A stretch of DNA of 64,000 bases from Eledone cirrhosa (GCA_964016885.1 OZ024740.1:201190001-201254000); one strand, 5' to 3'. Positions 1,112 through 50,615 are shown, counted from the stretch's first letter. Notes: generated by a model from the sequence alone, not told the origin. Numbers and translations are program-made.

Positions 1112-1203
<92 letters not shown>

Positions 1204-1393
1204 TTAGTTAAGCAAAACAAGACCACAAATTTCACAAGGAAGACATTATTAAAAGATTATCAACATATTTTAGTTTGATGTAAGTAATGTAGAGAATAAT
1301 AATAATAATAATATTAATAATAATAATGTCCGTTTACAATTGTTTCGCTACTCCATATAATATTTCTGGTTCAAATGACTATATATCATTATT

Positions 1394-1580
1394 TAGGCGG
1401 TGGATTGGCAGTATCGGTAGAGGGTCGGACGCCATGCTTTCCAGCATAGTTATGTCCCTTTGCGATCTGAGTTCAAATCCCGCCGAGGTTGACTTTGCCT
1501 TTCATCCTTACGGGGTCGATAAAATAAAGTACCAGTAATGCACTGGGTAATGTTGGCCTTGTGCCTAAAGTAGAAACAAT
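1394..1580 (+). mobile_element. tRNA-derived SINE family 1, inserted in the PLE-A pLTR
   Basis: Head TGGCAGTATCGG (A-box-like), GAGTTCAAATCC (B-box), core GCCTTTCATCCTTACGGGGTCGATAAAATAAAGTACC, tail CCTTGTGCCTAAAGTAGAAACAATT; ATTATT on both sides; uninterrupted site at 3930-3950. Confidence 0.92.
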
Positions 1581-2024
1581 TATTTATCTGGTTCAGTTGA
1601 AAATAATTAACATAGGTAAAGATAGAGCAGCTCATCGGAACTTCAAAAGGAATATAAATTAAAATAAGGAAAGAAAGTTACATAAATGTAATGTTCCATA
1701 TATTGGTATTTTACTATGGTGTCCTGGGTATATCAATTGTCTGCCCTAGTCGAGCAGTATTCTTCTGTCGAGGCTGCATTCTGTGAGATCTCCCTATGGG
1801 TAACAAGATGGCCGCCAATGGACATATTTACCTTACAAATTAGAGGTTGATTTCAGGGGAAGTAACTCCTCGAGAGATTAGAAATTGCGGGTAGTTTATA
1901 GTTAAGTGCTAATTTTTTTATTTTTTTATTGAGAGACAATGTAAGAGAGGTAACTTATAATTATCTAAGTTAGTTATAGCTATTTAACTTATTAGCTACA
2001 AGTAAAAATGGGGCTAGATGACTA

Positions 2025-3085
2025 TGTTGGGTCAAATATTCTGTTGGCGAAGGAATTAGCCCTTCGATGTTGACAGCTAATAGTTACCTCCGTTCTATCG
2101 TTAATCGGTAGAGGTCGTGATAAAGTTATGTAATATGCTTCGGTAAGACAAAGGTCACAAGATTTTCTTCGTCCATTGAACGGTTGGGCCTAACCAAGAT
2201 ATCCCATGTTAGTGAGTGTTCAATGTTGGTTAATTTCAGGTTTTTAATGAGCCTAGCTAGAGATGTCGAACATCTGTTGTTAGGGTCTCGGAAGATTATT
2301 GAAGCGTAATAACTGTCAATGTCAAATTGGATGAACCTCATAGATTCCTTGGACCTTAGATCGGAGAACCAACTAATGACTTGGCCGATGTTGGAACACA
2401 ACTTGTAGGTGATATCATCTCGTAGCCCAGGGATGATCCTATCAAGGATGTTCTTACTGATACAACCCAAGTCGGATGTGGTTGGGCTTATAAGTCTAAT
2501 AGATGGGTTCTCTATAAAGTTTGGCTTATGATCCTTGAGAGAAAACCTTGGGGTTGTTGGTACATAAGGGTGGGTAAATCTATCCAGATGCAAGTCCTTA
2601 ACCAAAGCCTGGGCTTTTCGGTTAAGTAAGTTTACACTGGAGGGTATAGTTTTTTTATAGTTTTTATTAAGTTCCTTAAGAAGGAAAGAGTTGTAAGTTT
2701 CAGGAATCATGGTGTATAGATTTTTAGTTTTGTCATGCAAGAGGTGGCTATCTTTAAATTTTTTTATAGTTGTTGCTAATTTTGTGAGGAAATTATTCTT
2801 GTGTTTATAATGCTTTTTGAATTTAATCCTCCTGACGAAGTTAAATAGATCTTTCTCAAAAGGGTCCAGCAGGATGTTGTGTGGGGGGTTCTTGCAGGTG
2901 TTAAATCCATATCTGTTTGCTGTACTTCCGGCGTCAGCAGCACCCGCACGGTCGAAGTCGAAGGCTTTCCATCGTATTCTTCGGATGAAAGAGTTGACAC
3001 TCTGTATTAGGAGTTTGAGGTATGTCTTCCTGTCCGGGATAGGTATGGACTTAAGTGACATCCTGAGTTCCTGCTTGCTCAACAT
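2025..3085 (-). pseudogene. PLE-A RT N-terminal part fused to GIY-YIG C-terminus (RT core deleted, frameshifted)
   Basis: Homologous to the intact ORF 47213..49930 (SLKxIPIP, RFxLKDHKxxFxxNPSxRLI, FIQFDI); no YRDD segment. Confidence 0.88.
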
Positions 3086-3424
3086 GGTGACTTCTAACAG
3101 TAAATAGCTAAAACTATGGGATCTCAAGTATACACAGTTCAAGAGTAACCAATCTTAAAGAGAGAGATGGAGATAGGAGAGGATATAGGACAGGAGACAT
3201 TGGTGAATTAGTTAGAAGCCAAAGCGTAAAAGCATGTGCTCAATGTGTAATATGCAGTGGAAAGCAGCTAGGTGGTTGGGTTCATGCAGAGGTTAGGTGC
3301 ACAGAGCTGGAAATATTCATTAGTTAAGCAAAACAAGACCACAAATTTCAGAAGGAAGACATTATTAAAAGATTGTCAACATATTTTAGTTTGATGTAAG
3401 TAATGTAGAGAATAATAATAATAA

Positions 3425-3612
3425 TTGTTTCTAATTTAGGCACAAGTCCAGCAATTACCCAGTACATTACTGGTACTTTATTTTATCGACCCCGTAAGGA
3501 TTAAAGGCAAAGTTAACCTCGGCGGGATTTGAACTCAGACTGTAAAGGGACGTAACTATGCTAGAAAGCATGGCGTCCAACCCTCTACCGATACTGCCAA
3601 TTCACCGCCCTA
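3425..3612 (-). mobile_element. SINE family 1, 3' end abutting the (TAA)n tract of the PLE-A pLTR
   Basis: Reverse complement of the 1394-1580 copy. Confidence 0.92.
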
Positions 3613-3668
3613 GTTGTCTTCCTGTCCGAGATAGGTATAGAGAATAAGAATAAGAATATTAATAATAA

Positions 3669-3853
3669 TTGTTTCTACTTTAGGCACAAGGCCAGCTTTT
3701 ACCCAGTGCATTACTGGTATTTATTTTATCGACCCAGTAAGGATGAAAGGCAAAGTTAACCTCGGCGGGATTTTAACTCAGACCGCAAAGGGACGTAACT
3801 ATGCTGGAAAGAATGGCGTCCTACTCTCTACCGATATGCCAATCCACCGCCCC
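3669..3853 (-). mobile_element. SINE family 1, second adjacent copy
   Basis: Reverse complement of 1394-1580; tail abuts AATAATAAT. Confidence 0.92.
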
Positions 3854-3854
3854 T

Positions 3855-4615
3855 ATAATATTAATAATAATAATGTACGTTTACAATTTTTTCGCTACTC
3901 CATATAATATTTCTGGATCAAATGATTATATATCATTATTGATCTGGTTCAGTTGAAAATAATTAACATAGGTAAAGATAGAGCAGCTCATCGGAACTTT
4001 ACATAAATGTAATGTTCCATATATTGGTATTTCACTATGGTGTCCTAGGTATATCAATTGTCTGCCCTAGTCGAGCAGTATTCTTCTGTCGAGGCTGCAT
4101 TCTGTGAGATCTCCCTATGGGTAACAAGATGGCCGCCAATGGACATATTTACCTTACTAATTAGAGGGTGATTTCAGGGGAAGTAACTCCTCGAGAGATT
4201 AGAAATTGCGGGTAGTTTATAGTTAAGTGCTAATTTTTTTATTTTTTTATTGAGAGACAATGTAAGAGAGGTAACTTATAATTATCTAAGTTAGTTATAG
4301 CTATTTAACTTATTAGCTACAAGTAAAAATGGGGCTAGATGACTATGTTGGGTCAAATATTCTGTTGGCGAAGGAATTAGCCCTTCGATGTTGACAGCTA
4401 ATAGTTACCTCCGTTCTATCGTTAATCGGTAGAGGTCGTGATAAAGTTATGTAATATGCTTCGATAAGACAGAGGTCACAAGAATTTATTCGTCCATTGA
4501 ACAGTTGGGCCCTAACCAAGATATCTCATGTTAGTGAGTGATCAATGTTGGTTAATTTAAGGTTTTTAATGAGCCTAGCTAGAGATGTCGAACATCTGTT
4601 GTTAGGGTCTCGGAA
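3855..4615 (-). mobile_element. PLE-A 3' end (endonuclease C-terminus, 3'UTR, hammerhead region), inverted relative to 4616-6550
   Basis: Near-identical to 1310-2294 without the SINE; reverse complement of 5472-6270. Confidence 0.9.
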
Positions 4616-6671
<2,056 letters not shown>

Positions 6672-6691
6672 ATATATATATATATATATAT

Positions 6692-6767
<76 letters not shown>

Positions 6768-6825
6768 TGTATAGATATATATATGTATATATATGTATTA
6801 GAAAGGAGGGGTTTGGGGGGGAGGG

Positions 6826-7011
6826 GTTACAAAATGCAAAATAACCGAGGTGTCCTACACGAGTGAAAGTATAAAGAAAAAAAGATGAAATCGAAAATGC
6901 AACTGAAGTCTTATTTTTAAAAATATATATATTTATTTGGTTCCTTTACTGGTTTCGCAATTCTTCTGCTTTTCAAAAATAGAGTTGAGATGGAGGGTCT
7001 GTGGTTTTTCT

Positions 7012-7016
<5 letters not shown>
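6826..7016 (-). mobile_element. Fragment of the 19.5-20.3 kb palindrome family, with a decayed U3-A8 hammerhead (6943-6980)
   Basis: Matches 19504-19645 and the reverse complement of 20110-20305. Confidence 0.85.
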
Positions 7017-8993: not shown

Positions 8994-9097
8994 GAGATTT
9001 TGAGTTTATGTTGGTTGTATACCAACACCTCAGTATGCAGGCTGGAGCACTCGACGAAGTGCGCAGGTTGGTTTGGTTACTCCGGAGTAGTGTAAAA

Positions 9098-9523
9098 TAA
9101 AGTTAAATAAAAGTCAAATGATTAAAATTTAGCTTCGTTTATTACTGCTATATATATTTCAGTGACAGCCATCTTTGGCTGTGACCTCTTCAGGCAGTTT
9201 GAATTAGTATGGTATAGACAAGTACATATGTTGTTTAGGTGTATGATATTGTCAATACTCTGATATGCCCAGTTCCTTGTTGGGTTGTAATTCACTGGGG
9301 AACTGGAGTCATATCCAGTTCCCCAGTGAATTAACAACCCAACAAGGAACTGGGCATATCAGAGTATTGACAATATCATACACCTAAACAACATATGTAC
9401 TTGTCTATACCATACTAATTCAAACTGCCTGAAGAGGTCACAGCCAAAGATGGCTGTCACTGAAATATATATAGCAGTAATAAACGAAGCTAAATTTTAA
9501 TCATTTGACTTTTATTTAACTTT

Positions 9524-9524
<1 letters not shown>
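9098..9524. repeat. Near-perfect palindrome with about 210-bp arms and a 6-nt centre (GTCATA, 9308-9313); a hammerhead in each arm
   Basis: Arms are reverse complements with one indel. Confidence 0.97.
9424..9478 (+). ncRNA. Type I hammerhead ribozyme (mirror copy 9144-9198 on -)
   Basis: Stem I ACTGC/GCAGT; core CTGAAGA and GAAA; stem II GGT-C-ACAGCCA/TGGCTGT-C-ACT; palindromic stem III ATATATAT; AUA cleavage triplet; AATAAA at 9479-9484. Confidence 0.88.
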
Positions 9525-9580
<56 letters not shown>

Positions 9581-9618
9581 TTGCCAGAGTTTTTATATGA
9601 AATCGTGTGACGAAACAA

Positions 9619-9919
9619 ATATTGTTATACTTGGGGATAGTTGTATTTGTGTAATAATATTGCCAGAATTAATAACAGAACACACTCACTGTTTGGTTGG
9701 TTTTCGCTTCTGTGTCTTTTATATCGGTTAATTTAATTTATTCGGTCCTCAATGTTGCCATTGACTGACAAACGGTCAAAAATACAGATACAATATAGAC
9801 ACAAACACATATATATAGTCTATCAAAGTTCTTTCGTTGCACATCTGGAACATCGTTAGTGGTGCTATTATGTTTCCTCCCGTTACATTGTATGCTTACG
9901 CCATCTTTATTTGGTCTGT

Positions 9920-9970
<51 letters not shown>

Positions 9971-10181
9971 TTTGATAGACTATATATATATGTATCTGTG
10001 TCTATATTGTATCTGTATTTTTGACCGTTTGTCAGTCAATGGCAACATTGAGGACCGAATAAATTAAATTAACCGATATAAAAGACACAGAAGCGAAAAC
10101 CAACCAAACAGGGAGTGTGTTCTGTTATTAATTCTGGCAATATTATTACACAAATATGACCCTCCCCAAGTATAACAATAT
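9619..10181. repeat. Inverted repeat (9619-9827 / 9971-10181) derived from the pLTR of PLE family C; decayed hammerhead at about 9820-9864 (-)
   Basis: Arms are reverse complements; homologous to 20790-21120, which follows a GIY-YIG C-terminus. Confidence 0.9.
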
Positions 10182-10889
10182 ATATATATATATATATATA
10201 CATACATATACAAGTTTATTTATTTATTCAAGTTTTACAACATGACATAATGCTTCAGCAAAGCCAGTTGATAGTTCTCTAAGCTTCTGGTGGTTGTGAT
10301 CATGACCATCATCATCATTATCATCACAATTGCGCCTTAGAAGGTATCAAAACCACTAATATTTGACTTTGAAAAATTGAAAACCGCGCGTTTAGCCAAA
10401 CTATAGACTATACAGACCTGCATCTAAATGTATAATCTAAACCATTATAAATATTCCACTGTGGGAGATATATTTTAGTCTTTCACAAACGACATAAAAA
10501 CTTTTATATTCATGTTTTCTTTATTACGTAGTGTCAAATTTATCGAGGTTACAGTAAAATTGTGCAATGACCAGGTTATGAAATAGTGCCAAATTTACTT
10601 GTTGTTGTAGAATTGTACCAGTGACCAGGTTGAAGAGAGTGTGACGAAAATTTTGTTAACAAGAAATATATGAAAAGTTCATATAACATTTTTTTTTCTT
10701 TCTAATTACTTTTCTAAAAATGTCTAAAATGACTCTTCCGCAATTTAATTGCTTTATTTGCATAATACGATCGCAGCAAAACTCACTTTACAAACAAAGC
10801 TCCGAAATAATAAAGCGTACTGAAAGAATATTTCGAATTATTAGCATCTCCATGGCGTGTTGTATGTCTCAATAATAAATCCACAATAG

Positions 10890-11252
10890 ACACAGCATGG
10901 CCAAATGGATAAGAAGTTCGCTTCACAAATATTTGGTCCAGGGTTCAATCCCACTGCTTGGCATCTTGGGCATGTCATTTACCATAGCCTCGGATCGAAC
11001 GAAGTCTTGTGAGCGAAATTTGGAAGATGGAAACTGTTGGGAAGCCTGTCGGACGGACTGTACATCTAAATCAAATGACCAGGCGTGATATTCAAAGAGT
11101 CAAATAATGTGTCACACTAAATCTCACGAGAACCACGTCAAGGGCGCATGTGACTGTGGGATCTTCAGTGACATGCACGTTAATTTCATAAGCTGGCTGT
11201 TCCTTTGATCAAACAACTGGAACACACATCGTCGAAAACGAGGGATGTCCAT
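10890..11252 (+). mobile_element. tRNA-derived SINE family 2 (diverged)
   Basis: TGGCCAAATGG A-box, GGTTCAATCC B-box; tail similar to 50900-51050 and the reverse complement of 62855-63000. Confidence 0.8.
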
Positions 11253-11699
11253 TCCAATAAATCCACAGAAACAATATCAAAGAAGTCTAGTTGAATTATA
11301 CAAAGGAAAAAATACCATTTAATTATTGCACATTCTAAACATAACTGGGCTAAAAGCAAAACAATCCTTATCTTTCACATCTATTGAAGACGGGAAAATC
11401 TCTACCAATAAAGTATTAGGGACCGGCGCGATACTTAGAATAGGTGTAGCATAGTTACTTTACCTTTGAATTTAATTGGCATGGCATAAATTCTTACATC
11501 TTGACACTGGTGGAGAGAAGGCAGTGGAATTGTCTTAGACTCAACCTCCGTCGGATTCAGCGATGAATAATAGAAACGATCGAAAAGATTCCAAACCTCA
11601 TTTGCTTACCAAGTGGGGTGAAACTCGTCAAATAGAACAAAGGAAAAAATGTTTCTATTGGTCTTTGCATTGCTGATACTCTCTACCGGTTGAAACTTC

Positions 11700-12180
11700 T
11701 GGCAGAAAGAACGACGTGAAATAAAGTGTCTTGCTCTAGTACATAAGGCATCGCTCAGTCCGAGAATCGAACTCACAACCTCACGATTGCGAATCCAGTT
11801 CTCTAACCACTAAGCCATGCACCTTCAGCGATAAGTATTCCAGTTGTTCGTTTAATGGAACAGCCTGCTTTAGAAATTAACGTGTAAGTGGCTGAGTATT
11901 TCACAGGCATTGGTGGATTGGCAGTATCGGTAGAGGGTCGGGCGCCATGCTTTGACGCATAGAGTTACGGCCCTTGCCATTCTGAGTTCAAATCCCGTCG
12001 AGGTTAACTTTGCCTTTTATCCTTACGGGGTCGATAAAATAAAGTACCAGTAATGCACTGGGTAATTGCTAGCCTTGTGCCAAAAGTAGAAACAATTATA
12101 CCTATAGTCTAATTCTTAGTCAGATCCAGCGTGACACTGTGTTGTGTGACACGGTTAAACCTATGAATTTCAAGTACTAG
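11700..12180 (-). mobile_element. SINE family 2 pieces: head 11700-11827, and a tail piece 11835-12180 split by a SINE1
   Basis: Minus-strand TGGCTTAGTGG...GAGTTCGATTC; GAAATTAACGTGTAAGTGGCTGAG shared with 62920-62950. Confidence 0.75.
11911..12098 (+). mobile_element. SINE family 1
   Basis: Same head, core and tail as 1394-1580. Confidence 0.92.
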
Positions 12181-12609
12181 GATATGTTTCCACACGCTGA
12201 CGCGTATGTGTATATGTGTGTGCGTGTGTGTGCGTATGCATACATTTATATGTATGAGTATAGGTATAAACTTACAAACTCAGACACACTTACAAAAATA
12301 CACACTCAGACATACATTCACACAAACGCACACATACATTCACACACACGCATACACAGCATAACAAATGGAACGTCAGCCGCTATTTTGCTAGAAAATT
12401 TTCACCGCCCCCTGCCTTCCTTTTATACACACATGCATTCACGCAGGCAGCAGACGTAAAGAGAGAGTAGTATGTGGTAGTCAAACTACTACTCTCTTTT
12501 TATGTGTTGTGGCAGAATCACAGAAATTTATATAAAGATAGGCCATCCGATGAGCTTCCAATCAAATTTCCATCTACCCTATTTCACCCACAAAACATGG
12601 ATCAATCCG

Positions 12610-15170
12610 AACCAACGGAGATTGACAACTCACAGTTGCAGCAGAAATACTAAAATATAAGTCAACAGCACATAAACGACAAGTGCTAAATAGATTATTT
12701 GCCAGAGATCCTAAATCAGTTTATCGCAGCTTCAATGGGAAAAGCTCAATCTCTGTAAATGACACGCCTACAAAAGAACAGGTTGAGAGCTACTGGGGAT
12801 CTGTAAGGGAAACGAATGACGGATTTAGCAAACAAACTAAATGGCTAAAAGAACTGGAACACGACTACTGCCAACATGTCCAGACAAAACAATATAACAT
12901 AAATAGGTCAATAATGGAAACAGCTCTACAGAAAATGTCGAATAGGAAATCACCAGGCCCAGACCTCATAACAGGATACTGGCTGAAGAAATTCACCTTC
13001 TATCGGCAAGATCTCATATGGCTGTTCAGAGAAACCATCAAAGGCACACAATGGTTATCAACTGTCACTACTCTCCTCATCCCCCCAAATAGCCAGACCT
13101 TGCTAAAAATTACCGCCCAATAGCTTGCCAGAACATCCTGTACAAATTATACACTGGGTGCCTTAACCTGTTCTTACAGGATCATTGTGCCACCAATAAA
13201 ATTATAACACCTGAGCAAGCTGGTGGAAAGAGGGAGGTGTGGGGTTGCATAGATCAACAAATAAAATGATACAGGAAAACATAGCAAAGAATCGCAGGAA
13301 TATGACTGTGGTGTGGCTGGACTATCAGAAGGCTTTTGATAGTGTACCTCATGGATGGATTATTAAGGCTTTATATTTAGCCAAAGTCCCACAACCACTA
13401 GTAGCTGCTGTTGAACATCTGACCAAGAACTGGTACACTAATTTGATACTTAGGGTTGAGAAGGAGCAAATTAAGATTGATACAATACACTACCAGAAAG
13501 GCATCTTTCAGGGTGATAGCTTATCAGTACTGCTCTCCGTCCTCTCACTAAACCCACTATCATACCTCCTCACAAAACAAAGTGGTCATGGAAGCGGGTC
13601 CAGAAGTATCTCCCATCTTTTCTTTGTTGATGATCTGAAGTTTTATGGGCTAAATATCAACTACATAAAGAAAATTAGACCTCATTACACAATTTTCTGC
13701 AAATATCAGAATGAAATTTGGTGAGTCCAAGTGTGCATATTTGGCAGTAAAACGTGGAAGAGCTGTGTCCTCCTCTAGAAATCTAGAGATTAACAGCCTG
13801 TCAATACAACCTCTACAGTCAGGTGACAACTACAGCTATCTTGGACAGGATGAGAATGTCAAATATGATGGACCCATAAATAAGGAGAGAACCAGAACTG
13901 AATACCTCAGAAGAGTAAAGAAAATGTGACCATCAGAACTGTCAGCGTACAACAAATACATTGCCCACAATACTTATGCTGTACCAATTCTAACGCCAAC
14001 ATTTGGTCTGCTGAACTGGTCATTGCAAGAACTAAGTAAAATGGATGTAAGAACTCGCAAGCTTCTCAGTGTTACTGAAAACTTTAACATCAATGGTGAT
14101 GTGACTAGGCTATACTTCTCCCGCAAGGAAGGTGACTGGGGTCTAAAATCCATATCAACAGCATATGAGACCTGGATAGTAACACTGAAGCAACATCTTC
14201 AGCAGAAGAAAAAGGTCAGCAACCATCTTGCCCAGGTCTATGATCATGAAGGAAATAATATCATTAGTATAGCCACTGATCTGGAGGGGAGATATGGAAT
14301 AAAGCCTGATATAGATCTCTCTCCCAGGGAAATTGGAAGATCCTACTCAATGTTCGAACAGGATAAAAGAATGGACCAATTTACAGAGAAAGTTGTGCAT
14401 GGGTACCTGAGACGAAAAGCACAGACCACAGAGGGGATAAATCATCCAAAAAGCCTGACATGTAGTTCCGACAAGTTTATGACATTCCACCTTGAAGGAC
14501 ATCTCTATGCAATACAGGAACAAGAAATCCCCACCAAATATCTGCTGCACAAAAGAGGACCATCAGTCGACAATAAATGTAGGCTATGTAAAACAAAGAT
14601 CGAAGATGTTAGCCACATTGTTGCCAACTGTGAAAGAATATCGTCTCGCTACTACCTCCCTATGAGACACGATGTGATAGCTAGAACAATCTGCTGTGCA
14701 CTTAGGAAAACAAAATTAAAAACAAATGAGGAGGAATATGTTGAGAAAGATGGCACTAAAAAATACTGGTGGAACCTGAAAATAAAAGCTGCCACCAAAT
14801 TAAAACACAACTGGCCTGATATTGTTGTTTGGGACCACACACTACAAACGTGCTCTATTGTAGAGATCAGCTTCCCACTTGATGTAAACGTTGTCAGAAA
14901 AATACAGGAGGAGGACATCTACGGACCATTGATGAGGAATTTGCAGATCCAGTATCCAAGATACACTTTCAGCTTCATACCCATTATTATTGGAGCTACA
15001 GGTTATATACCAACCCACTTGGACCAAAGTATGACTGAACTTGGATTTGTAGACAAAGAGCGCAGCTCCCTAATTCATAGGGTACAAATGGCTGCGATAG
15101 CTGGGACCTTCAAAATTTGCAAAACATTCTTGCGATTCAAGGGATGGCAATTTCCTTTCTTTTACAACCT
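12610..15170 (+). pseudogene. 5'-truncated, decayed R4/Dong-like non-LTR retrotransposon (RT + CCHC + restriction-like endonuclease)
   Basis: KSPGPD, WLDYQKAFDSVPH, GIFQGDSLS, FVDDLK, CRLC..HI..C, RHD, PDIVV..IVEIS; several frameshifts and stops. Confidence 0.92.
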
Positions 15171-15267
15171 TGCCACCAGGAAGGTGGCCGGTCAAAAATG
15201 TACTTGAATTAAGAGAAAGAGAAACATACATACATACATACATACATACATACATACATAGATAGAT

Positions 15268-15337
<70 letters not shown>

Positions 15338-16318
15338 GAGGGCGAGAAAAGAGAGGGAGGGAGAGAAGTATCGAGAAGCAATCTATCTATCTGTTTACCC
15401 GTCTATAACATGCCCTTGTTTTTACATAACACATCGTACTATACCTTGGACAATATGGACGCTGAAGAAAAAGCTTTTCAAGTTCTTTTGGTGTAACAAA
15501 ATTCTCAGTAATGGTTCAGTGATTCCAATATTTATGTGAACGTAATCAACCGCAGGTTTCTGATTCATCACACACAAAACAGAAACTTCATCTTATAATT
15601 GGAGATTTGCAAAAATATATACAAATAATGAGGATACGAGAAGCAGGCAGTATCTTTCGCTTGGTCGACGAACAACGTAAGAAATATTCCTATAATTGAA
15701 ATCAACCATTTTCTAAACAATAAAGAATGTTTCTAGAAGTATGAATGAATGAATGGATGAATGGATGGCTGGATGAATGAATGGTATTCTGTGGTGTATT
15801 TTGTGAATAAGAAATGCACCTGTTTGTACATTTGTACATGAACGCGCACACACACACACACATACACACATACTCACACACACTCACACACACTCACACA
15901 CACTCACACACACACATGCATATGCATTTATATGCATATATGAGTTATTTGTGGATCGTGAATGGTGTAAACAGTGTCAGATAAAGGTCTCGACAGGGAT
16001 CGAAACTCGAGTCAGTCAGGTCATCGTTTTCAATATATGGAGAAATACTATATAAGACATGTTTAAATGGTTAAACATATCAAAATGTGTGTTTATTTTC
16101 ACGTCTCGCAGCTTCGATTAAAGCCTGTAGTGTTTATATAAATACAAATCTTAGCAAATTCAACAGCTTAGTGCAAGATTTATTCTCTCTCTCTCTCTCA
16201 CTCTCTCACTCTCTCTCTCTCTCTCCCTCTCTCTCGCTCTCTCTCTCTCTCTCCCACTATCCCTTTCTCTCTCTCCCTTTCTCTCTCTCTTCCACTATCC
16301 TCCCATCTCTCTCTCTCC

Positions 16319-16378
<60 letters not shown>

Positions 16379-16379
<1 letters not shown>

Positions 16380-16894
16380 TATCAATAATATTAATAAATG
16401 GAAACTATCTTTATAAAACCATATTTATTTTATTATATATATTTCAAGAGTAACAACATTTTTGGTACGCCTTCATCAGATAAAATACAAAAGTTGTTTT
16501 ACAGATAGTGACATATTCAAACAGAACTCAAAACGCTAAGTTCTAGTTTTGAATATGTCACTATCTGTAAAACAACTTTTGTATTTTATCTGATGAAGGC
16601 GTACCAAAAATGTTGTTACTCTTGAAATATATATAATTGTTTCTACTTTAGGCACAAGGCCAGCAAATACCCAGTGCATTACTGGTACTCTATTTTATCG
16701 ACCCCGTAAGGATGAAAGGCAAAGTCAACCTCGGCGGGATTTGAACTCAGATTGTAAAGGGACGTAACTATGCTGGAAAGCATGGCGTCCGACCCTCTAC
16801 CGATACTGCCAATCCACCACCCTTCTTGAAATATATATAATAAAATAAATATAGTTTTATAAAGATAGTTTCCATTTATTAATATTATTGATAT
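16379..16894. repeat. Palindrome (about 150-bp arms, centre near 16529-16538) with a SINE1 in the right arm; another copy of the distal arm at 1-70
   Basis: Arms are reverse complements once 16638-16841 is removed; contains CTGATGA-A-GG-CGTA-CC-AAAA. Confidence 0.92.
16638..16823 (-). mobile_element. SINE family 1, full length with 18-bp TSD
   Basis: TCTTGAAATATATATAAT at 16620-16637 and 16824-16841. Confidence 0.95.
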
Positions 16895-17110
16895 TATAAT
16901 CCAGAAGAAACTTGTAGAGTGCTTCTAATCTGTTATAAACTAAATTTGCTGAATAACCAACAAATTAAATAACTCATTGCTTATATAAATATATAGATAT
17001 AGATATAGATATATAGATCATATATATACATCATATGTATATACATATAGATCATATATATATACATCATATATATACATATATATATATACATATATAT
17101 ATATTATTAC

Positions 17111-17143
<33 letters not shown>

Positions 17144-17294
17144 TATATACACACATACATATATATATATATTTATATAATATATATATATATATGTGTG
17201 TGTGCGTGTGTGCGTGTGTGTGTCGGATGGTAGCTAAGATGCTTCCGTAGGCGGTATGCCGGTTGAGCACTCTATGCTCTTACAGAGTATGATG

Positions 17295-17643
17295 TAATAT
17301 AAAACGAAAAATCAGTGATGCATCTGAACTCAATTTATTGTGTGTTACAATTGTTTCGCCGGAGGACAGCTCGAGACGCGATCATTGTCTGGATCTGTCT
17401 GATTCTGGACCCGCCGGTTCGACGGACACGTCTAATGATTTCGGAGCATATTCTTCCATTGGGGTATCTCACCCTGTGGGCCAGTACTGACAAAAACTTC
17501 ATCCTCTTCGCGCGTCCAGTGATTGGCCGCTGGTTGCCTACGTCATCATACATACTGACCACAGGTATTATTCCGCTGTCCCATGTCTGCTACACTTCAA
17601 TGAATCACTGCTGTGTTTGGTAGTCCACACATCCACGCGCGCA

Positions 17644-17732
<89 letters not shown>

Positions 17733-18041
17733 GCACCACCACATAGATACCGACAGGCTCCCGCTATACCCACACATTAAGGAGAACATATAAACATATA
17801 AACATACGCATACATTCATCCAAAGAGACACGTATATACATAGACACATGCCCACAGGCCTATATAGATAAACACGCACACACACACATGCTCATACACA
17901 TGCATACGTGTATGTATACACGTACACACAAACACGTACAGACATGTACGTAGAACTCCCCCCCCCCCTCCAACGCACACACACATATATATACACACGT
18001 ACCCATATATACACGCACAGATACACACTCGCTCGTAAACA

Positions 18042-18083
<42 letters not shown>

Positions 18084-18527
18084 AACACGTACAGACATGT
18101 ACGTAGAATCCCCCCCCTCCACCAACGCACACACACACATATATATATATATACACACATACCCAGCATAGTTACGTCCCTTTACGATCTGAGTTCAAAT
18201 CCCGCCGAGGTTGACTTTGCCTTTCATCCTTACGGGATCGATAAAATAAAGTACCAGTAATGTACTGGGTATGTGCTGGCCTTGTGCTTAAAGTAGAAAC
18301 AGTTATATGTATATTCTTTATATTGGTAATATTTTTAATATATATTATATTTTATATTTTTTTTATATATATGTAGATGCGTATATGTATGTATATGTGT
18401 ATATATATATGTGTATGTATATATTTTTGATATGTGTATATGTTTATAACAAGATGCATCCTTTCATGTACGACCCATTGTGTATCTTTGTATGACTTTG
18501 TGTGTATATTCTGTTTATGTGTGTATA

Positions 18528-18565
<38 letters not shown>

Positions 18566-18798
18566 TTATTTTTTTATATTTTTTTTATGCGTGCGTGCGT
18601 GTGTATGGCAATATGCGCATGTTTGTAGGAGTGTATATGGGCCGTGTGTGTGTGTGTGTGTGTGTGTGTACAAGCACCCCTGTAGGGAAAGGGCTTGTTT
18701 GTGTGTGTATATATATATATATATGCGTGTTTACAAGCGAGTGTGTATCTGTGCGTGTATATATGGGTACGTGTGTATATATGTGTGTGTGCGTGGGT

Positions 18799-18833
<35 letters not shown>

Positions 18834-19053
18834 CTACTTACATGTCTGTACGTGTTTGTGTGTACGTGTATACATACGCGTATGCATGTGTATGAGCATG
18901 TGTGTGTGCGTGTTTATCTATATAGGCCTGTGGGCATGTGTCTATGTATATACGTGTCTCTTTGGATGAATGTATGCGTATGTTTATATGTTTATATGTT
19001 CTCCTTAATGTGTGGGTATAGCGGGAGCCTGTCGGTATCTATGTGGTGGTGGT

Positions 19054-19097
<44 letters not shown>

Positions 19098-19450
19098 TGT
19101 GAGTGCGCGCGTGGATGTGTGGACTACCAAACACAGCAGTAATTCATTGAAGTGTAGCAGACATGCGACAGCGGAATAATACCTGTGGTCAGTATTTATG
19201 ATGACGTAGGCAACCAGCGGCCAATCACTGGACGCGCGAAGAGGATGAAGTTTATGACAGTACTGGCCCACAGGGTGAGATACCCCAATGGAAGAATATG
19301 CTCCGAAATCATTAGACGTGTCCGTCGAACCGGCGGGTCCAGAATCAGACAGATCCACACAATGATCGCGTCTCGAGCTGTCCTCCGGCGAAACAATTGT
19401 AACACACAATAAATTGAGTTCAGATGCATCACTGATTTTTCGTTTTATAT

Positions 19451-19452
<2 letters not shown>
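17295..19452. repeat. Long inverted repeat (arms about 17295-18087 and 18696-19452) with GC-rich distal halves; 5'-truncated SINE1 (18165-18305, +) in the spacer
   Basis: 17335-17640 is the reverse complement of 19100-19415; distal ends carry GAAACAATTGTA..AATAAA. Confidence 0.93.
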
Positions 19453-19503
<51 letters not shown>

Positions 19504-19510
<7 letters not shown>

Positions 19511-20260
19511 AAAAAGAGATGAAATCGAAAATGCAACTGGAGGCTTATTTTTTTTTTAAATATATATATTTATTTGGTTCCTTTACCGGTTTCGCAGTTC
19601 TTCTGCTTTTCAAACGGTGAGTTGAGATGGAGGGTCTGTGGTTTTTCTCACATCTGGTTGGTCTCTGAATGTTACTTGTTTTATATGGAAAAAGTGGCTT
19701 GAAATGCCAGGTTTTTCGAGAAGTAATTTGATTGGTTTGTCAATAATTATAATAAATTTCGCGTTACAATAGTTCTTCAAATAAGAGGGGGGAGCTGTCA
19801 CAGGTTGTTTTTTCATATATGAGTGTTTGAATTTCTTTTTACTTGAAAAAAGGGGCTCACGAAGGCCAACCAAAAAAAAACCTTCGTGAGCCCCTTTTTT
19901 CAAGTAAAAAGAAATTCAAACACTCATATATAAAAAAACAACCTGTGACAACCCCCCCCCCCCTCCCTCTTATTTGAAGAACTATTGTAACGCGAACTGG
20001 CGCGAAATTTATTATAATTATTGACAAATCAATCAAATTACTTCTCGAAAAACCTGGCATTTCGAGCCACTTTTTCCATATAAAACAAGTAACATTCAGA
20101 GACCAACCAGATGTGAGAAAAACCACAGACCCTCCATCTCAACTCACCTTTTGAAAAGCAGAAGAACTGCGAAACCGGTAAAGGAACCAAATAAATATAT
20201 ATATATTTTTTAAAAATAAGACTCCAGTTGCATTTTCTATTTCATCTCTTTTTCTTTATA
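19504..20260. repeat. Palindrome (about 360-bp arms, 15-nt centre 19866-19880) with a hammerhead in each arm
   Basis: Arms are reverse complements with few differences; the right arm continues to about 20305. Confidence 0.96.
20147..20184 (+). ncRNA. Minimal type I hammerhead, U3-A8 core variant (mirror copy 19580-19617 on -)
   Basis: CCTT-TTGAAAA-GCAG-AAGAA-CTGC-GAAAC-CG-GTA-AAGG; palindromic ACCGGT stem III; AATAAA at 20190-20195. Confidence 0.8.
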
Positions 20261-20327
20261 CTTTCACTCGTGTAGGACACCTCGGTTGTTTTTCATTTTG
20301 TAAAAAAAAACCTCACTTTCTAATATA

Positions 20328-20409: not shown

Positions 20410-21120
20410 ATTAGAATTAGAATTAGAATTAGAATTAGAATAATATCTAAACATAGGAATGACCCAGCAGATAGGCAAATCAGAGAGGCCAGTGAAATAG
20501 AAATTAGAAGACCAAAGCTAAACAGAAAGAATGAGTGGAACAACAACAACACCCAAACAAACAACACTGACCTAAGAGAAGTATAAATAAGTAAATAAAA
20601 TTAAATAAAATAAGATAAATAAATACATACACAAGCACAATAACAACAAGCACATAAACACACACTAGTCACCCAGCAGACACAACACTATACACACTAG
20701 TCACAGATCACACATAACACTATACACACACGCAAACGCATGCGCAAAGAAGACAAAATAAAATAAGATAAACAAACAAGCAAATAAATAAATAAATATA
20801 TAGACAGACTGAATAAAAAATGGCGTAGACATACAACACAACAGGAGGAACAATGAATATAACACCACTGACGATGTTGCAGATGTGCAACGAAAGATTT
20901 ATGTAAATTATGTAAACTATATATATATATATGTGTTTGTGTCTATATTGTATCTGTATTATTTTTGACCGCCGGTCAGTCAATGGCAACATTGAGGACC
21001 GATTAAGTTAGATCGCAGATATAAAAGACAGCGAGAAGCGAAAACCAACCAAACAGTGAGTGTGTTCTGTTATTAATTCTGGCAATATTACGCAAATATG
21101 ACCCTCCCCAAGTATAACTA
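20410..21120 (+). mobile_element. 5'-truncated PLE family C: GIY-YIG C-terminus (20410-20586), 3'UTR, pLTR with hammerhead motif at 20864-20904
   Basis: Own translation IRIISKHRNDPADRQIREASEIEIRRPKLNRKNEW resembles PLE endonuclease ends; CTGACGA-T-GTTGCA-GATG-TGCAAC-GAAA. Confidence 0.78.
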
Positions 21121-21139
21121 TATATATATATGTATTTAT

Positions 21140-26117: not shown

Positions 26118-29100
26118 TTTCTTTATTAACCACAAGGGTTTACATAAAGTAGACATTAAGGACAGTGCAGGATAATACAGGGCGGTACTAATGGGCATTT
26201 CTGCGTGTAAAAAACAAAAACAGAGGATGTAACAAAAAATAACAATGAAAAATTCCCCGGAGGGACATTTGTGGAGAAAGCCCATTAAAAGACCACAGTG
26301 ACCCTGACCACCAGGGCAAGTGCCCTCTCCCAGTTTTCCACCTTTAATTTACAGACACATACTCAGAGAAGGCCCATTCATTCGGGCCATACTTACTTCT
26401 CTCACCCATCTTTCAACAAAATGCTGGGAAGAGAGCACTTCCCTCTCTACCCTGATTTTACTTTTCAAATGAAATTTGAAAAGTAAAATCAGGGTAACAT
26501 CAGTTAATCAGGGCATCACCAAAGAGGTAAGTGCTCGTCTTCAGCCCTTTCAAATGTGTCCACCATACTATCTCTTTCGCCATGGCCACCAGAGAGATAA
26601 AAACTGCCTGCCCTTCCCGGCTAAAGGAAGAGGGCGGGGCAATCCTCACGATGGACTCAGCTGATAGCTGGATCCGTCCTACACGCGACAGCAGGTGTTC
26701 AACATAAACCCACAAGTCAGCAATGCTCGGACACTGGACGAGTGCGTGCAGGAAGGTTTCGTCGCCCTGCGCGCATCTCGGACATGCCCGGCTGACGGCA
26801 CCTTCATGCTTGTAGAGTTTATCCCGAACTGGCAAAGCTCCTCGGTAGCACTGCCAGGCCAGGGATTTCTGGAAGTTGTCCATAGGCCCCGGCCCGAAAG
26901 TTCTTCCGAAGAGATTGGCTAGTTGACTTTCGTCGACGCCTATAGTTTCTCCAAGTACGTCGTCGTTCTTCCCCTCCACTAATCCCCTATAGAACGCCAA
27001 GGTGGAGTTTCCACCGATCACATTGCCCGATTGGTCGAGGGCTGTGAGCGCCTGAAGACATTCCAGTCTCCAAGCGCTCCCTCTCGGTATTCGCTTGACC
27101 CAGGACTGCAATTCCGTCAAGGAGACGAGCTGGGGAAAGACGAGTCTAGCAAACGGCGACCACACCTGATCACCGTCGAGGAAGAGGTGGAGATGTCGTA
27201 GCCTGAGCGCGTGTCTGCGCATCATCAGCCACGGCATGCCCAGCCCTTCACGTAGCGGGTGTTGACAGCAGATGGACCGCCTGAACATCGAAGCGCGTCC
27301 TTTTCACAAAAGGCGAAAGAGCAAACGCTCCAGCGCAGTCAGGCGGCGCTTAGGACAAGGTACCACGGTTAGGCGGTAATAGATGACAGACGCGATGTAC
27401 GCGTTAGCCACCTCCGCTCAAACTTTCAGGGATAGCTTCCTCTCCGCCCATTTCTGGGTGAGATAAGCCACCCTGCTCGTCACCTCGTCCCAGTTTTTGT
27501 CCGTCTGGAGGTCTGGACCGAACCAGACCCCTAGCAATTTAACCGGTCCGTCCGTCCAGCGCCCGACGACGCTGTTGGACGGCATGGACCTGCCTCTCCA
27601 GGTGCCGAGCTGCAGGCCCACTGACTATTCCTTGTTGATCATTGCTCCTGTCACCGCTTCATATTCTCTTAGTGTAGTGGCGATCGCCTCGATTTGTTTG
27701 GCGTTCGACACCACTACGGTGACATCGTCCGCATATGCTGACACGGATCCTCCGCATCCTAGTTCGCGCGGGACCCCCCTCAACGTCTCCAATTTGTGCA
27801 GTAATGGCTCGAGAGTCAATACGTACAATAGGGACGAGAGGGGACATCCTTGGCGGACCGAGCGCATGATGTTGAACGGTTCCGAAAGGTGACCGTTCAC
27901 TCTCACTACAGAGCAGATGTCGCTGTGCATGGCAGCGATCCAGCCTCTGAAAACAGGCCCAAAGCCAGCCGCCCTCAGGATTGCCGCTAGGTAACGATGG
28001 TCGACCCTATCGACGGCTTTCGACTGATCTAAATTCATCAAGACCCACCCGTGCCAGGTTCCCTAGCTACCCTCTCTACGATGTATCGCATGAGGTGGAG
28101 GTTGTCGTGGATGGATCTGTCGGGAATGGCGCATGTCTGTGCCTCTCCCACCAGACCACCAACGACAAGCGCCAACCTCTTTGCTAGCACCTTGGCCAAA
28201 ATCTTGAACTCTGTGTTTAGCAGAGTTATGGGTCTAAAATTATCTATGTTATCCCCCTTGTTCGGATCCTTTCTCAGCAGCGCCACCGCTCCTCGGCTCA
28301 CAGAGCTGGGAATTCTCCCGTTCTGTTGCCAGTTGCAGTAGACGTCCGCCAAGAGGCCTCCGAAGAAGTTTGGCATTTGTACGTAAAGTTCATAGGGCAG
28401 ACCATCCAAACCAGGCGATTTACCCCTTGTGCAGCCAGTCATTGCCTCCCGTACTTCAGCGGTTGTTATCGGCTTTTCGCAACACTCCGCCTCAGTGGCC
28501 GAAAGCCGCGGCAGTCCGTCGAGTTAGACACTAAAGTCCATCCCTCGATCCGGCCCGCCACTTCCCCCGAACAGCTGAGCGAAGTGTCGCTGAAAAGCTT
28601 CACACATTTGCCCGGGATCGAGTAGCATGCGCCCGTCGTGGTCCACCAAAGACCCGATCGTGGCTTTGTTGCCACGACGCGCCTCCGCCACTCGGGCCCA
28701 TTGAACGGCTTTCGTCCCCTGGTGTCTGAGAGCACGCACCCTAGCTCTGACAACGCAGCCTTCGTGCTTTGCATTGAAGAATTGGTCAAGGGCCAATTTC
28801 GCCGCAAGTACGTCGGTCTCGATGCCTTTGCTAAGCGCCTCGTCTAATTTTCTAACTAATTCTCCCTCTGCTCTATTTTTCTCTATTGCTAAAGCCTTAC
28901 TAAACCTAATGGACTCTATTCTAATTGCTCTTTTCAGAGCAAAGCACCACTTGTTGTTGACGATGGTCCCCGTCAACGCCCGCTTAACTAGTTCGCTAAT
29001 CCGGTCTCTGTAGGCCTTGCGCGCTGGTAAGGACGCGTTTAGCTTCCAGTAGCCGGGTCCTCGTCTATGAAGCCTATCTAAGTCAAGCATACAGATCACG

Positions 29101-40842: not shown

Positions 40843-41133
40843 CAGTGGCGGACTGGGTCTAAAAATATTGATTGCCAGGAGATGAAGGGGGCCCACCTAC
40901 ATATAGAATGCTATCATTTAATTTTTATAATGAATAAATAACATTTTCGAAAAATACATAAGTGGAAACAAAACAGTGCAGTCAAATCTTTGTGTAAAAA
41001 TATACCTTCTCCAATAAAAAATATTACGTATTTTGCGAAATCCAAAGACTTTCAATAATGGCCAAAAGTCGACCCTAAATATTGCTAATAGCTCTTGGAA
41101 AGCCATAAACGATAGCACATATTTTTAACTTTG

Positions 41134-41427
41134 ATTTTGAAAGTAGGTTTATAATTATCAATTTTCATTATACTTTTATAGCTGTCTCGGTGGCCTAGTT
41201 GGAGGAATCATAGACGGTCCTGGTCTGAAGTTCGATCCTGGTTGGGAGTAAGGTTCCCAGTAAACCTTTTCAGTTTTTTTTCTATTGGTTGTAAAATAAA
41301 AACTGAAAAAGGTTACATGTAACTCTTGACCAGGATTGAACCGAAGGCCAAGACCTCCACAGCGAGGCCACAGAGACAACTACGAACATCTGATGTAAAT
41401 TCATACCTATAAACCTACTTTCAAAAT
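41134..41427. repeat. Imperfect palindrome with perfect 20-bp ends containing two convergent tRNA-like units
   Basis: ATTTTGAAAGTAGGTTTATA / TATAAACCTACTTTCAAAAT; A/B-box-like motifs on both strands. Confidence 0.8.
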
Positions 41428-41520
41428 TTTCAAAACAAAGTGTTGTGGTGTCGTTCATGTCTTTCTGAATGTTATTGCTCCTACTTAAGGTCGACGTCTA
41501 AAGCAATCGTTTTGTTTCAC

Positions 41521-44350: not shown

Positions 44351-45251
44351 GGAAAAATTTGAACAGGAACAAAACAGAGAGGCAGTACAACGAATGTTTA
44401 TTAATTTCACGCTCTGGAGAGTGGGGTGGTGGTGGGGAACGACGTTTCGGGCATAAGCCCTTCCTCAGGTGAGAAGTGTGTGGGAACAGAGTTCAAAGGG
44501 TGTGTAGGGGAATGGTGGAGAGACATATAGCGAAAGGAAACGGTGAGAATGAAATTAAAAATAAAAATAAAAATAAAGCATGATCAAAATAAAAGGAATG
44601 AAATAAAAATAAATATAAAAGCATGACCAAAATAAACTGAAATTAAAAAGGGGTAAAACAGGTGGTGGAAGGGTGTGGGGTGTGCAGGGGTGGTGGCAGG
44701 TGGAGTGGGGGGAGGGAGACGGGGTGTCCGAGCGGGGAGGGCTGAAGGTGGTGTGTGTGTAGGTGTACGTGTGTGTGTGTGTGTGTGTATGTGAAAGTAA
44801 GGGTTGGGGGAAGAACGGGGTTGCATGTTCAGGAAGAGGTGTGTGTGGGGGGGGGGGTTGTAGGTCGGAGTGTCTGTGCGTGTGTGGATAGAGGGGTGGG
44901 GCGGGGAATCAGGAGGCTGAGGGTGTAAATATGTGGTGGAAAGCACGTGTGTGTGGGGTTTAAGCGTGTTGTGGGTGTAGGTGGCGTGTGGGAGAAAACA
45001 ACATTTTTGGGTGTGTGTGTGGGTGAGTTATATAGGTGATTCCGTAAGAGGATGGTTGAAATGTTGGTAAATTCCTATGATGTTTAGTAGATTCCGTGGT
45101 GGTCAAGTTCCACATACGAGTATTCCATGAAGAATGAATTGGTCGGAAGAGGAGAGATGTGGGGTGCGCGCGCAACAGGAAGTGGTCAAGCGGTGGGAGT
45201 GCTGTGTGTCTGTTTGTGCTGGGAGGTGGTCAGAGGGCATAGCAGCAGTCA
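44350..45251 (-). mobile_element. Probable decayed PLE 3' end with hammerhead core at 44439-44470
   Basis: Minus strand CTGAGGA-A-GGGC-TTAT-GCCC-GAAACGTC then AATAAA; stem I only 2 bp; coding remnant weak. Confidence 0.5.
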
Positions 45252-50517: not shown

Positions 50518-50562
50518 ATTGCCCTGATGAGTCCTTAATAGGACGAAACATTGTTGGCTAAT
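50518..50562 (+). ncRNA. Minimal type I hammerhead of PLE-B (identical sense copy at 45399-45443 on -)
   Basis: GCC-CTGATGA-GTCC-TTAATA-GGAC-GAAAC-ATT-GTT-GGC, then AATAAA. Confidence 0.88.
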
Positions 50563-50615
50563 AAAGACTTTTGATGTATTGAAGGGTTCTTTGGTTTATT
50601 TTCATAATTATTTTC

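Follow-up and report, generated by a model that had tools for sequence, protein, structure and literature searches.

Hammerhead-bearing palindromes of Eledone cirrhosa as head-to-head ends of Penelope-like elements

In a window of 64,000 nucleotides of Eledone cirrhosa DNA (GCA_964016885.1 OZ024740.1:201190001-201254000), an initial annotation described several ORF-less hairpins between positions 9098 and 20305, carrying hammerhead ribozyme motifs on both strands. These hairpins raise the question of whether they are by-products of Penelope-like element (PLE) insertion or an overlooked class of self-propagating ribozyme elements. Our reading, to which we assign a probability of roughly 0.8, is that every palindrome consists of two short hammerhead-bearing terminal repeats (pLTRs) of one PLE family, joined head to head within (TA)n and with a tail on one arm, and that its mirror arm was likely made during insertion from the same RNA template.

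Fold-back units and their Penelope-like parents

The fold-back units announced in TA-rich tracts were recovered as five inverted repeats with 90-98% arm identity, each adjoining (TA)n tracts (Table 1). None is a pure palindrome, all five carrying an unpaired tail of 41-99 nt on a single side. Because of this single-sided tail, the two transcription directions would give different RNAs and not the same RNA, as had been assumed. The tail of unit A was single-sided in 24/24 palindromes among the best matches, and that of unit C was partial on both sides in 1/24 and undetected in 2/24 distinct loci.

Table 1. Features of the five units. Positions are counted from the first nucleotide of the window; L numbers designate genomic loci of the parent families.
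Feature	Position	Strand	Remarks
Unit A inverted repeat	9093..9529		98% arm identity
Unit A tail, unpaired 3' extension	8994..9092	-	in L057/L058, leader and ORF come next
Unit A tail-bearing pLTR arm	9093..9314	-	99% to both pLTRs of the L058 ORF element; inner end at 9314, which is unit position 1 and the family 5'-end hot spot
Unit A tail-less inverted pLTR arm	9315..9529	+	outer end at unit position 223, the second of two fixed 3' ends in the family
Unit A left-arm type I hammerhead motif	9144..9198	-	
Unit A right-arm type I hammerhead motif and AATAAA	9424..9484	+	motif 9424-9478, AATAAA 9479-9484
Unit D inverted repeat	9619..10181		96% arm identity
Unit D tail	9578..9618	-	in the parent, falls among the first ORF codons
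Unit D tail-bearing pLTR arm	9619..9973	-	one decayed hammerhead motif near 9822-9864; 80% to pLTR of a ~1,130-aa RT+GIY-YIG ORF in L183
Unit D tail-less inverted arm	9976..10181	+	begins 3' (downstream) of the hammerhead motif
Unit C inverted repeat	16432..16637		93% arm identity; past the SINE, right arm resumes up to 16894
Unit C tail-less arm	16379..16534	-	hammerhead motif 16487-16426
Unit C tail-bearing arm	16535..16894	+	hammerhead core at 16590; split by SINE; 96% to pLTR 1.36 kb downstream of GIY-YIG ORF in L174
SINE-like repeat within one unit C arm	16638..16823	-	18-nt target duplication 16620-16637/16824-16841
Unit C tail	16895..16985	+	single-sided in 21/24 distinct loci
Unit E inverted repeat	17288..19459		91% arm identity
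Unit E tail	17225..17287	-	
Unit E tail-bearing arm, pLTR and microsatellite-rich 3' UTR	17288..18165	-	hammerhead-like motif with non-canonical core, 17429-17342; copies in L254 and L256 that follow PLE coding sequence match at 91-92%
Unit E tail-less inverted arm	18708..19459	+	motif 19318-19405
Unit B inverted repeat	19504..20260		90% arm identity
Unit B tail-less arm	19504..19866	-	U3-A8 hammerhead motif, core at 19613
Unit B tail-bearing arm	19866..20260	+	U3-A8 hammerhead motif 20147-20184; 93% to copy downstream of GIY-YIG coding stretch in L168
Unit B tail	20261..20323	+	

The units had been regarded as unrelated to one another, but all five are PLE ends. On the strength of sequence, each one is the pLTR and tail of a PLE family, coding copies of which are present elsewhere in this genome, and longer genomic copies join all five families to RT and/or GIY-YIG coding sequence. 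These coding assignments were made from motifs and from tblastn matches to the 911-aa ORF of the window; Pfam gave no match for this ORF, PLE ORFs being unrecognised. RT and endonuclease motifs were found for families A (L057/L058), D (L165, L183) and E (L254), and the endonuclease-coding part only for B (L168, L260) and C (L174, a single locus). The parent of family A is organized as pLTR-tail-ORF-pLTR-tail plus an inverted 5' piece in L057/L058, the tail preceding a short leader and then the ORF start in coding copies. The family D parent forms 4,147-bp tandem units carrying RT+GIY-YIG, and copies of families B, C and E follow sequence that codes for GIY-YIG or RT+GIY-YIG, on its downstream side. 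Tandem or partial tandem pLTRs surround the ORF in A and D; none were seen for B, C and E in the loci fetched. Two same-strand pairs, L055 and L056, were rejected as ORF-bearing elements and correspond to local duplications. Family A in L058 displays RWK, DKT, a CxCX5C linker, CxxC and CxH, a Hydra-type set with no CCHH, and C and E show Hydra-type motifs on the endonuclease side only. CxCX5C linkers are present in the parents of A, C and E and in the window element at 45244-50612.

Each family counts hundreds to thousands of copies genome-wide. Exact 24-mers matched 1,963 times for the A tail, 12,324 times for the B arm and 9,392 times for the D arm, and a first-look DNA search returned 2,091 candidates for C, with a query that spanned the centre and therefore biased the centre clustering of C, and 2,042 for E. 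Exact patterns matched only 3 times for C and 7 times for E because of private changes. An inverted 5'-truncated copy with a tail at one end, as in all five window units, was found in 56/95 copies of A among the 100 matches listed and in 14/22 of B.

Hammerhead motifs on the two arms

The outward-reading type I hammerhead attributed to each arm in 9098-9524 and 19504-20260 was found in both units. The motifs of unit A have the core CUGAAGA, 9/10 pairs in stem II, a palindromic stem III and a 5-bp stem I, with AATAAA immediately 3', as had been noted for this unit. Those of unit B have a U3-A8 core, the left arm showing one stem I mismatch. A strict descriptor recovered 6 motifs in 9098-20305, as compared with a mean of 0.005 and a maximum of 1 in 200 dinucleotide shuffles. 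The motifs of A, B and C pass this descriptor, that of D is recognized by its family motif and that of E is non-canonical.

The remaining units had been described as holding decayed or partial motifs. This proved correct for unit D, in which one decayed motif with a non-palindromic stem III is confined to the longer arm, but not for unit C, whose two arms each yield a motif accepted by the descriptor (the SINE cuts the right motif just past the cleavage site), nor for unit E. The latter fails the conserved core, U4 and A6 being changed; by the measure of its family, this odd core is not due to decay of the window copy, because each of the 7 letters of CCGUCGA is kept in 28-30/30 family copies. 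The family D core, CUGACGA, was present in 27/28 loci where the motif was located. None of the five units reached the Rfam gathering score. Hammerhead_1 was matched only at 45399-45443 and 50518-50562, with 29.1 bits for a cut-off of 34, and miRNA matches were sub-threshold only.

Predicted folding gave the hammerhead stem pairs a probability of 0.0 in the full palindrome transcript. The ribozyme is thus predicted to be unfolded in the full hairpin and to fold in single-arm RNA only, which makes the long hairpin with a self-cleaving end that had been envisaged unlikely.

Copy statistics and the origin of the mirror arm

Family A statistics were drawn from a position-ordered sample anchored on the tail (100 matches listed of 1,963), to which all counts out of 56 below refer. 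Ninety-five of the listed matches end with the tail, 56 have an inverted arm and these show 46 distinct junctions. The tail-less arm has its outer end at 216-226 in 50/56 inverted arms, and two end at position 36, before the second start site. At haplotype sites 17, 36 and 71, 3/194 within-copy arm comparisons were discordant, as compared with ~54 expected if arms were independent; two independent RNAs supplying the arms as a rule were rejected on this count. Private variants are mirrored across both arms. Because junctions vary and the arms of a copy share their haplotype, the palindrome would be rebuilt at each insertion. The proposal that the units are PLE insertion by-products is supported by these data, every unit being a PLE pLTR and tail whose junctions vary among copies.

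Inner ends show a hot spot: among listed copies, 31/64 tail-ended A copies reaching position 1 stop there, versus 1/13 ORF-linked copies (Fisher p=0.011). A purely structural stop of the RT at a 5' hairpin is disfavoured, 12/13 ORF-linked copies reading through. In 15/22 insertions of family B, one arm begins between -54 and -41, which is 30 nt below a TATAAAA; no TATA box was found at the unit A hot spot. We lean towards the hot spot marking where an RNA initiated within the pLTR has its 5' end, and priming near this end would leave only stumps of 220-320 nt. As to the hot spot as the start of the coding mRNA, full-length ORF copies beginning there were looked for and this idea was rejected, the count being 1/30.

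The initial annotation had proposed a shared centre as a test of propagation. Centres do cluster, one junction being common to 10/56 palindromes, but each is made anew and the test is misleading: since the point at which centres cluster is likely an RNA 5' end, copies may have their centre in common without the palindrome propagating. Eight listed copies with an identical perfect centre include two haplotypes and several outer ends. The single fixed centre suggested by a search with the whole palindrome was a query bias, exposed by the tail-anchored, position-ordered sampling.

The copy statistics favour a scheme in which cDNA synthesis is primed on each strand of the target, from two start sites on the RNA. 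The PLE protein would nick both (TA)n target strands, one cDNA would be primed at the tail end and a second at the tail start, and both would extend toward the RNA 5' end before joining head to head through short self-complementary patches or small templated inserts; hammerheads would be passengers in the formation of stumps. We regard this combination of two nicks, two priming sites and head-to-head joining as evenly poised between right and wrong. No published twin-priming model for PLE inversions was found in the open-access library searched. The tail-less arm is not a plain copy of the tail arm, because it reaches further 5' in 16/56 palindromes. The impression from the first 57 loci that it is usually the longer arm was abandoned, the comparison over all 100 listed matches being 16 vs 9 (p=0.23, not significant). 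Deletions arising later at the centres of palindromes could produce a similar inequality of the arms.

A competing explanation, which we consider less probable though serious, is that a single tail-end-primed cDNA folds and copies back to the tail start, is resolved by the endonuclease and has its centre trimmed by deletions. It accounts for the haplotype common to both arms, and at least as simply for the 31/56 palindromes in which both arms stop at one inner point, in many cases off the hot spot. Junctions are frequently found at local palindromes or hammerhead stem II; Arkhipova 2013 (PMC3846280) takes junction palindromes as self-priming, and Craig 2021 (PMC8557442) attributes the tail to endonuclease resolution. 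However, fold-back requires that in 16/56 the tail arm alone was shortened by deletion, by 85-570 nt in some of them, and is at odds with L070, in which the tail is fused straight to the inverted arm without overlap, with the arm differences at linked sites 116-117 in 2/83 palindromes (L029 and L087) and with partnerless tail-less ends (a solo tail-less copy was seen in family B, L124).

It is unlikely that the stumps form a non-autonomous, SINE-like tier, in which an internal promoter at the fold point would give an outward single-arm RNA copied by PLE protein in trans, the palindrome being remade. Non-autonomous PLEs are known in Chlamydomonas, and an internal promoter is described for Drosophila Penelope (PMC2377424). 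Family A tail copies are ~30x more numerous than leader-linked copies (1,963 vs 64 exact matches), short copies stop at position 1 where ORF-linked copies read through, and haplotype G36 is absent from 13 informative ORF-linked pLTRs. Against this, the three main haplotypes are all found in ORF-linked copies or in long copies that carry 3' UTR sequence upstream, no variant set restricted to short copies was seen, and stumps lack the CCAAT (A) and TATA (B) motifs, which are located upstream of the hot spot. The sharing of haplotypes between short and long or ORF-linked copies, together with arm-specific variants of which the commonest occurs in at most 3/96 palindromes, speaks against an overlooked self-propagating ribozyme class. 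The joint proposition that one enzyme dimer twin-primes PLE inverted repeats, using the two tail-bounding start sites to prime either strand of a broken (TA)n target, and that stumps are such a tier, with single-arm RNAs initiated at the fold point and copied in trans, the palindrome being rebuilt at each jump, is similarly doubtful; if true, a SINE-like twin-primed tier seeds thousands of near-perfect 200-400 bp hairpins here.

Propagation of the whole palindrome, whether through a fold-back DNA element of MITE type or through a hairpin RNA of full length, is highly improbable, and the counts of junctions and of haplotypes contradict it. The 40/40 scored matches to 9098-9524 that were full length, at 97-100%, are biased by their query, and the junction common to 10/56 stands beside 46 distinct junctions, mirrored private variants and the scarcity of arm-specific ones; the one-sided tail and variable outer ends likewise differ from a MITE or fold-back DNA transposon. 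Assembly fold-back artefacts can practically be dismissed, despite the difficulty of assembling perfect inverted repeats within microsatellites, in view of the 0.72% divergence between family A arms (118 in 16,461 nt), the SINE with its target duplication in one arm of unit C, and one-sided tails and fixed outer ends recurring across chromosomes.

Significance and comparison with known systems

The literature already describes hammerhead pairs on opposite strands, the U3-A8 core, inverted pLTRs and one-sided tails, and as an element class the head-to-head pLTR pairs have little importance, their structure and opposite-strand pairs being known. They are of modest value as a test bed: the formation of PLE inverted repeats and tails is given as undefined in Craig 2021 (PMC8557442), and counts from young, abundant families can separate two-strand priming from fold-back. 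Family A is young, with arms 0.7% apart and ~2,000 copies, and counts of its type point to a discrete RNA 5' end. Stumps resemble MITEs or miRNA hairpins and call for caution in annotation. Family A alone has roughly 1,100 near-perfect hairpins, as extrapolated from 56/95 among listed matches, which may impose a double-stranded RNA load where transcribed.

Non-LTR retrozymes are likewise ORF-less, PLE-derived and equipped with a type I hammerhead, but are direct tandem repeats with a ribozyme per unit (Li 2026, bioRxiv 10.64898/2026.07.22.740005, after Cervera and de la Pena), whereas the window units are inverted, with motifs on opposite strands, and unable to act as a tandem dimer. The closest same-strand A pairs among the 100 matches listed are 2.2-4.6 kb apart and are ORF-bearing elements or local duplications, and in L184, the sole short tandem of D, the region of the motif is missing. 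The minimal PLE hammerheads of Cervera and de la Pena 2014 (PMC4209133), in the part accessible, show the same dual opposite-strand motifs, ~100-700 bp apart and ascribed to truncated PLEs, the same U3-A8 variant, long helix II, short helix I and palindromic helix III, single motifs being without cleavage in vitro; the fixed CCGUCGA core and long branched stem II of family E were not found in that text.

Families A, C and E are alike by motifs, (TA)n insertion and hammerheads to the Hydra clade of Craig 2021 (PMC8557442), whereas the parents of B and D differ by CX4CxxC linkers, as in Neptune or Nematis. EN+ PLE insertions, according to PMC3846280 and PMC8557442, consist of a pLTR with an adjacent inverted 5'-truncated copy and a one-end tail, with junction palindromes, solo pLTRs, (TA)n targets and partial tandems, all of which are also seen in the window families. 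The families differ by tails of 41-99 nt instead of the 30-40 nt reported there, by the ~30:1 excess of ORF-less stumps over leader-linked copies in family A, and by inner ends that pile up at one point. Finally, the accessible text of Frangieh 2024 (PMC11167929), on the Poseidon PAc system in vitro, does not propose that opposite-strand start sites make an inverted repeat, a step that we suggest could occur here. It describes a dispensable hammerhead, an AT-rich target of which both strands are cut and extended, as in our scheme, and a tail bounded by two RT start sites, which match the two fixed outer ends of the Eledone units.

Inverted repeats and their parent families

Microsatellites, LINE-like RT fragments and members of a SINE-like family make up nearly the whole window (3.0-Gb genome). 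The inverted repeats of five units (A to E, see table) are genuine, with arms 90-98% complementary. The initial annotation, which had called them palindromes, overlooked an unpaired extension (tail) on a single side of each unit, beyond the terminal repeat (pLTR) of a Penelope-like element (PLE).

Features of the window (window coordinates)
Feature	Position	Description
Unit A	9098-9524	inverted repeat
Unit D	9619-10181	inverted repeat
Unit C	16379-16894	inverted repeat
Unit E	17295-19452	inverted repeat
Unit B	19504-20260	inverted repeat
SINE-like ~190-bp repeat	1396-1587, 3420-3609, 3664-3859, 11912-12099	window copies
SINE-like ~190-bp repeat	16638-16823, 18163-18318, 53692-53859	window copies
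Hydra-type PLE at 45244-50612	45244-45797	pLTR + tail
Hydra-type PLE at 45244-50612	50147-50612	inverted pLTR, ends in (TA)n

Of the two origins initially proposed, PLE by-products are favoured, each unit matching the end of a coding PLE family. The family A tail 24-mer has 1,963 exact matches in the genome. At two loci fetched elsewhere (L057, L058), pairs on one strand, separated by 4.1 and 3.5 kb, read pLTR-tail-ORF-pLTR-tail and have an inverted piece at their 5' ends; the ORF begins ~50 nt past the tail, and the pLTRs share 99% identity with unit A. A-family ORF pieces contain the motifs RWK, DKT, YRDD, CxCX5C, GIY-YIG-type, CxxC and CxH, the Hydra-clade marks given by Craig 2021 (PMC8557442). 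Family D (9,392 matches) corresponds to the pLTR of tandem units, 4,147 bp long, that hold an RT + GIY-YIG ORF; in L168 and L260, GIY-YIG coding sequence is found upstream of family B (12,324 matches). A Hydra-type endonuclease precedes family C (2,091 candidates) by 1.36 kb at one locus only (L174), and family E (2,042 candidates) is found downstream of a shared PLE coding sequence in three of the 15 E loci fetched (L249, L254, L256). Since coding sequence stands beside genomic copies of each family, all five units are ends of coding PLE families.

A full Hydra-type PLE occupies 45244-50612, with an uninterrupted 911-aa frame at 47213-49948 (-), whose protein was not recognized in a Pfam search; each outer repeat of the element bears a hammerhead (Rfam 29.1 bits, under the cut-off of 34). 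Families B and D are each represented again, at 6722-7016 and about 20460-21123, the D copy retaining the last 46 codons of the ORF and an intact core. A larger fold-back at 1197-6526 includes several SINE copies as well as PLE coding sequence in broken pieces (2126-3154, 5001-5747), and small palindromes occur at 41098-41465 (67%) and 26448-26496 (94%). The SINE-like repeat, present in seven window copies, also occurs in L174, where it lies at the end of the C-family copy. Different PLE families have left stumps stacked in the same (TA)n tracts at six loci (L043, L167, L176, L178, L181, L184), L184 having four tandem ~287-bp repeats of an inverted D piece.

Assembly of the palindromes

A whole-A query gave full-length matches only (40/40), which were discarded as a sign of inheritance owing to query bias. 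The sample used instead comprised every one of the 100 tail matches listed, ordered along the chromosomes, three being partner arms of close pairs, counted twice. The tail was followed by an ORF leader in 5 and by microsatellite or flank in 95. An inverted arm adjoins 56 of these 95 tail-ended copies, with 46 distinct junctions. In A-family numbering (position 1, the inner hot spot, is 9314 in the window), the tail ends at 318-325 in 92/95 copies, and the tail-less arm has its outer end at 216-226 in 50/56 palindromes. Palindromes from the whole-A search were added to reach 96 with both arms aligned. Divergence between arms was 0.72%, arm pairs were discordant at three subfamily sites in 3/194 cases (about 54 expected if arms were independent), private variants were mirrored across both arms in six cases, and no arm-specific variant was common to more than three of the 96. 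These many junctions, concordant arms and lack of inherited arm-specific variants indicate that A palindromes are made at insertion, each probably from a single template or a single source locus. A self-propagating palindrome class, for which shared centres had been proposed as support, is not borne out: 46 of 56 junctions are distinct, arm-specific variants reach at most three copies, and eight listed copies sharing a perfect centre carry two haplotypes and several outer ends.

Family B behaves likewise: once the 8 second arms among 30 loci were set aside, 14 of the 22 remaining insertions showed a partner arm, and their centres vary. In the A-family loci L029 and L087 the arms differ at linked sites 116-117, and the two pLTRs of L057 carry one haplotype each of this pair; tandem RNA or gene conversion could be the source.

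Inner hot spot and origin of the mirror arm

Among tail-ended A copies reaching position 1, 31/64 stop within 12 nt of it, vs 1/13 ORF-linked copies (p=0.011). CCAAT lies ~50 nt upstream of this hot spot, and 15/22 B insertions have an arm that starts at -54 to -41, 30 nt below TATAAAA. The hot spots do not coincide with the hammerhead cleavage site but lie ~40-115 nt upstream of the motif. They are most simply read as a discrete RNA 5' end inside the pLTR. Priming at start sites close to this end would give only 220-320 nt stumps, and longer read-through RNA would be the source of ORF-bearing copies.

A PLE protein is described as cutting and extending both target strands, with RT beginning at two RNA sites bounding the tail (Frangieh 2024, PMC11167929), and the two fixed outer ends seen here agree with the two start sites of that system. 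We give two-strand priming of the target a probability of about 0.5 as the origin of the inverted pair. The alternative, fold-back with trimming, is possible but somewhat doubtful. Inner ends are equal in 31/56 palindromes, against two-strand priming. In 16/56, however, the tail-less arm has 5' sequence absent from the tail arm, and the tail is present only on the latter, so neither arm simply duplicates its partner; later centre deletions could produce unequal arms, and the skew (tail-less arm longer in 16, tail arm in 9) is not significant. Also against fold-back, the bare tail in L070 directly abuts an inverted arm, and the two do not overlap. L1 twin priming gives such non-overlapping inverted joins; no publication applying it to PLEs was found in the open-access literature searched. 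Templated inserts are expected from polymerase-theta joining of free 3' ends, and the junction inserts, which copy adjacent arm sequence, would fit such joining. In 22/95 tail-ended copies the element runs into (CT)n, in phase with its last letters, ahead of (TA)n, through either repeated realignment at priming or preference for compound microsatellites.

Hammerhead motifs and known systems

The descriptor finds six motifs in 9098-20305 vs 0.005 per shuffle. As initially described, both arms of unit A hold an outward-reading type I motif immediately followed by AATAAA, and unit B shares this arrangement. The B core is of the U3-A8 type, already described by Cervera and de la Pena 2014 (PMC4209133). 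Of C, D and E, initially said to hold decayed or partial motifs, D does show decay (a single motif, longer arm); both C arms pass the descriptor, a SINE splitting the right one (18-nt target duplication), and the non-canonical E core is family-wide, fixed as CCGUCGA. The hammerhead-like E fold (17429-17342, 19318-19405, L215-L244), with palindromic stem III and long branched stem II, is a relic or a putative variant. In single-arm RNA, predicted pairing is 0.86-1.0 for outer stem II and about 0.14 for stem I. The suggested hairpin with a self-cleaving end is unlikely, because the predicted stem-pair probability is 0.0 for all hammerhead stems in either full palindrome transcript. For a single minimal motif, the account of Cervera and de la Pena 2014 reports no cleavage, and Frangieh 2024 describes the motif as dispensable for PLE insertion.

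The copy statistics give some, if modest, purchase on how the inverted pairs form. The five units are real and of an ordinary type: they represent new families within an element class already known. Opposite-strand dual motifs ~100-700 bp apart were ascribed to truncated PLEs by Cervera and de la Pena 2014; inverted and solo pLTRs, the one-sided tail and junction palindromes were described by Arkhipova 2013 (PMC3846280); Craig 2021 added the Hydra clade and the use of (TA)n as target. Retrozymes are given as direct tandems (Li 2026, bioRxiv 10.64898/2026.07.22.740005), whereas the units here are not.
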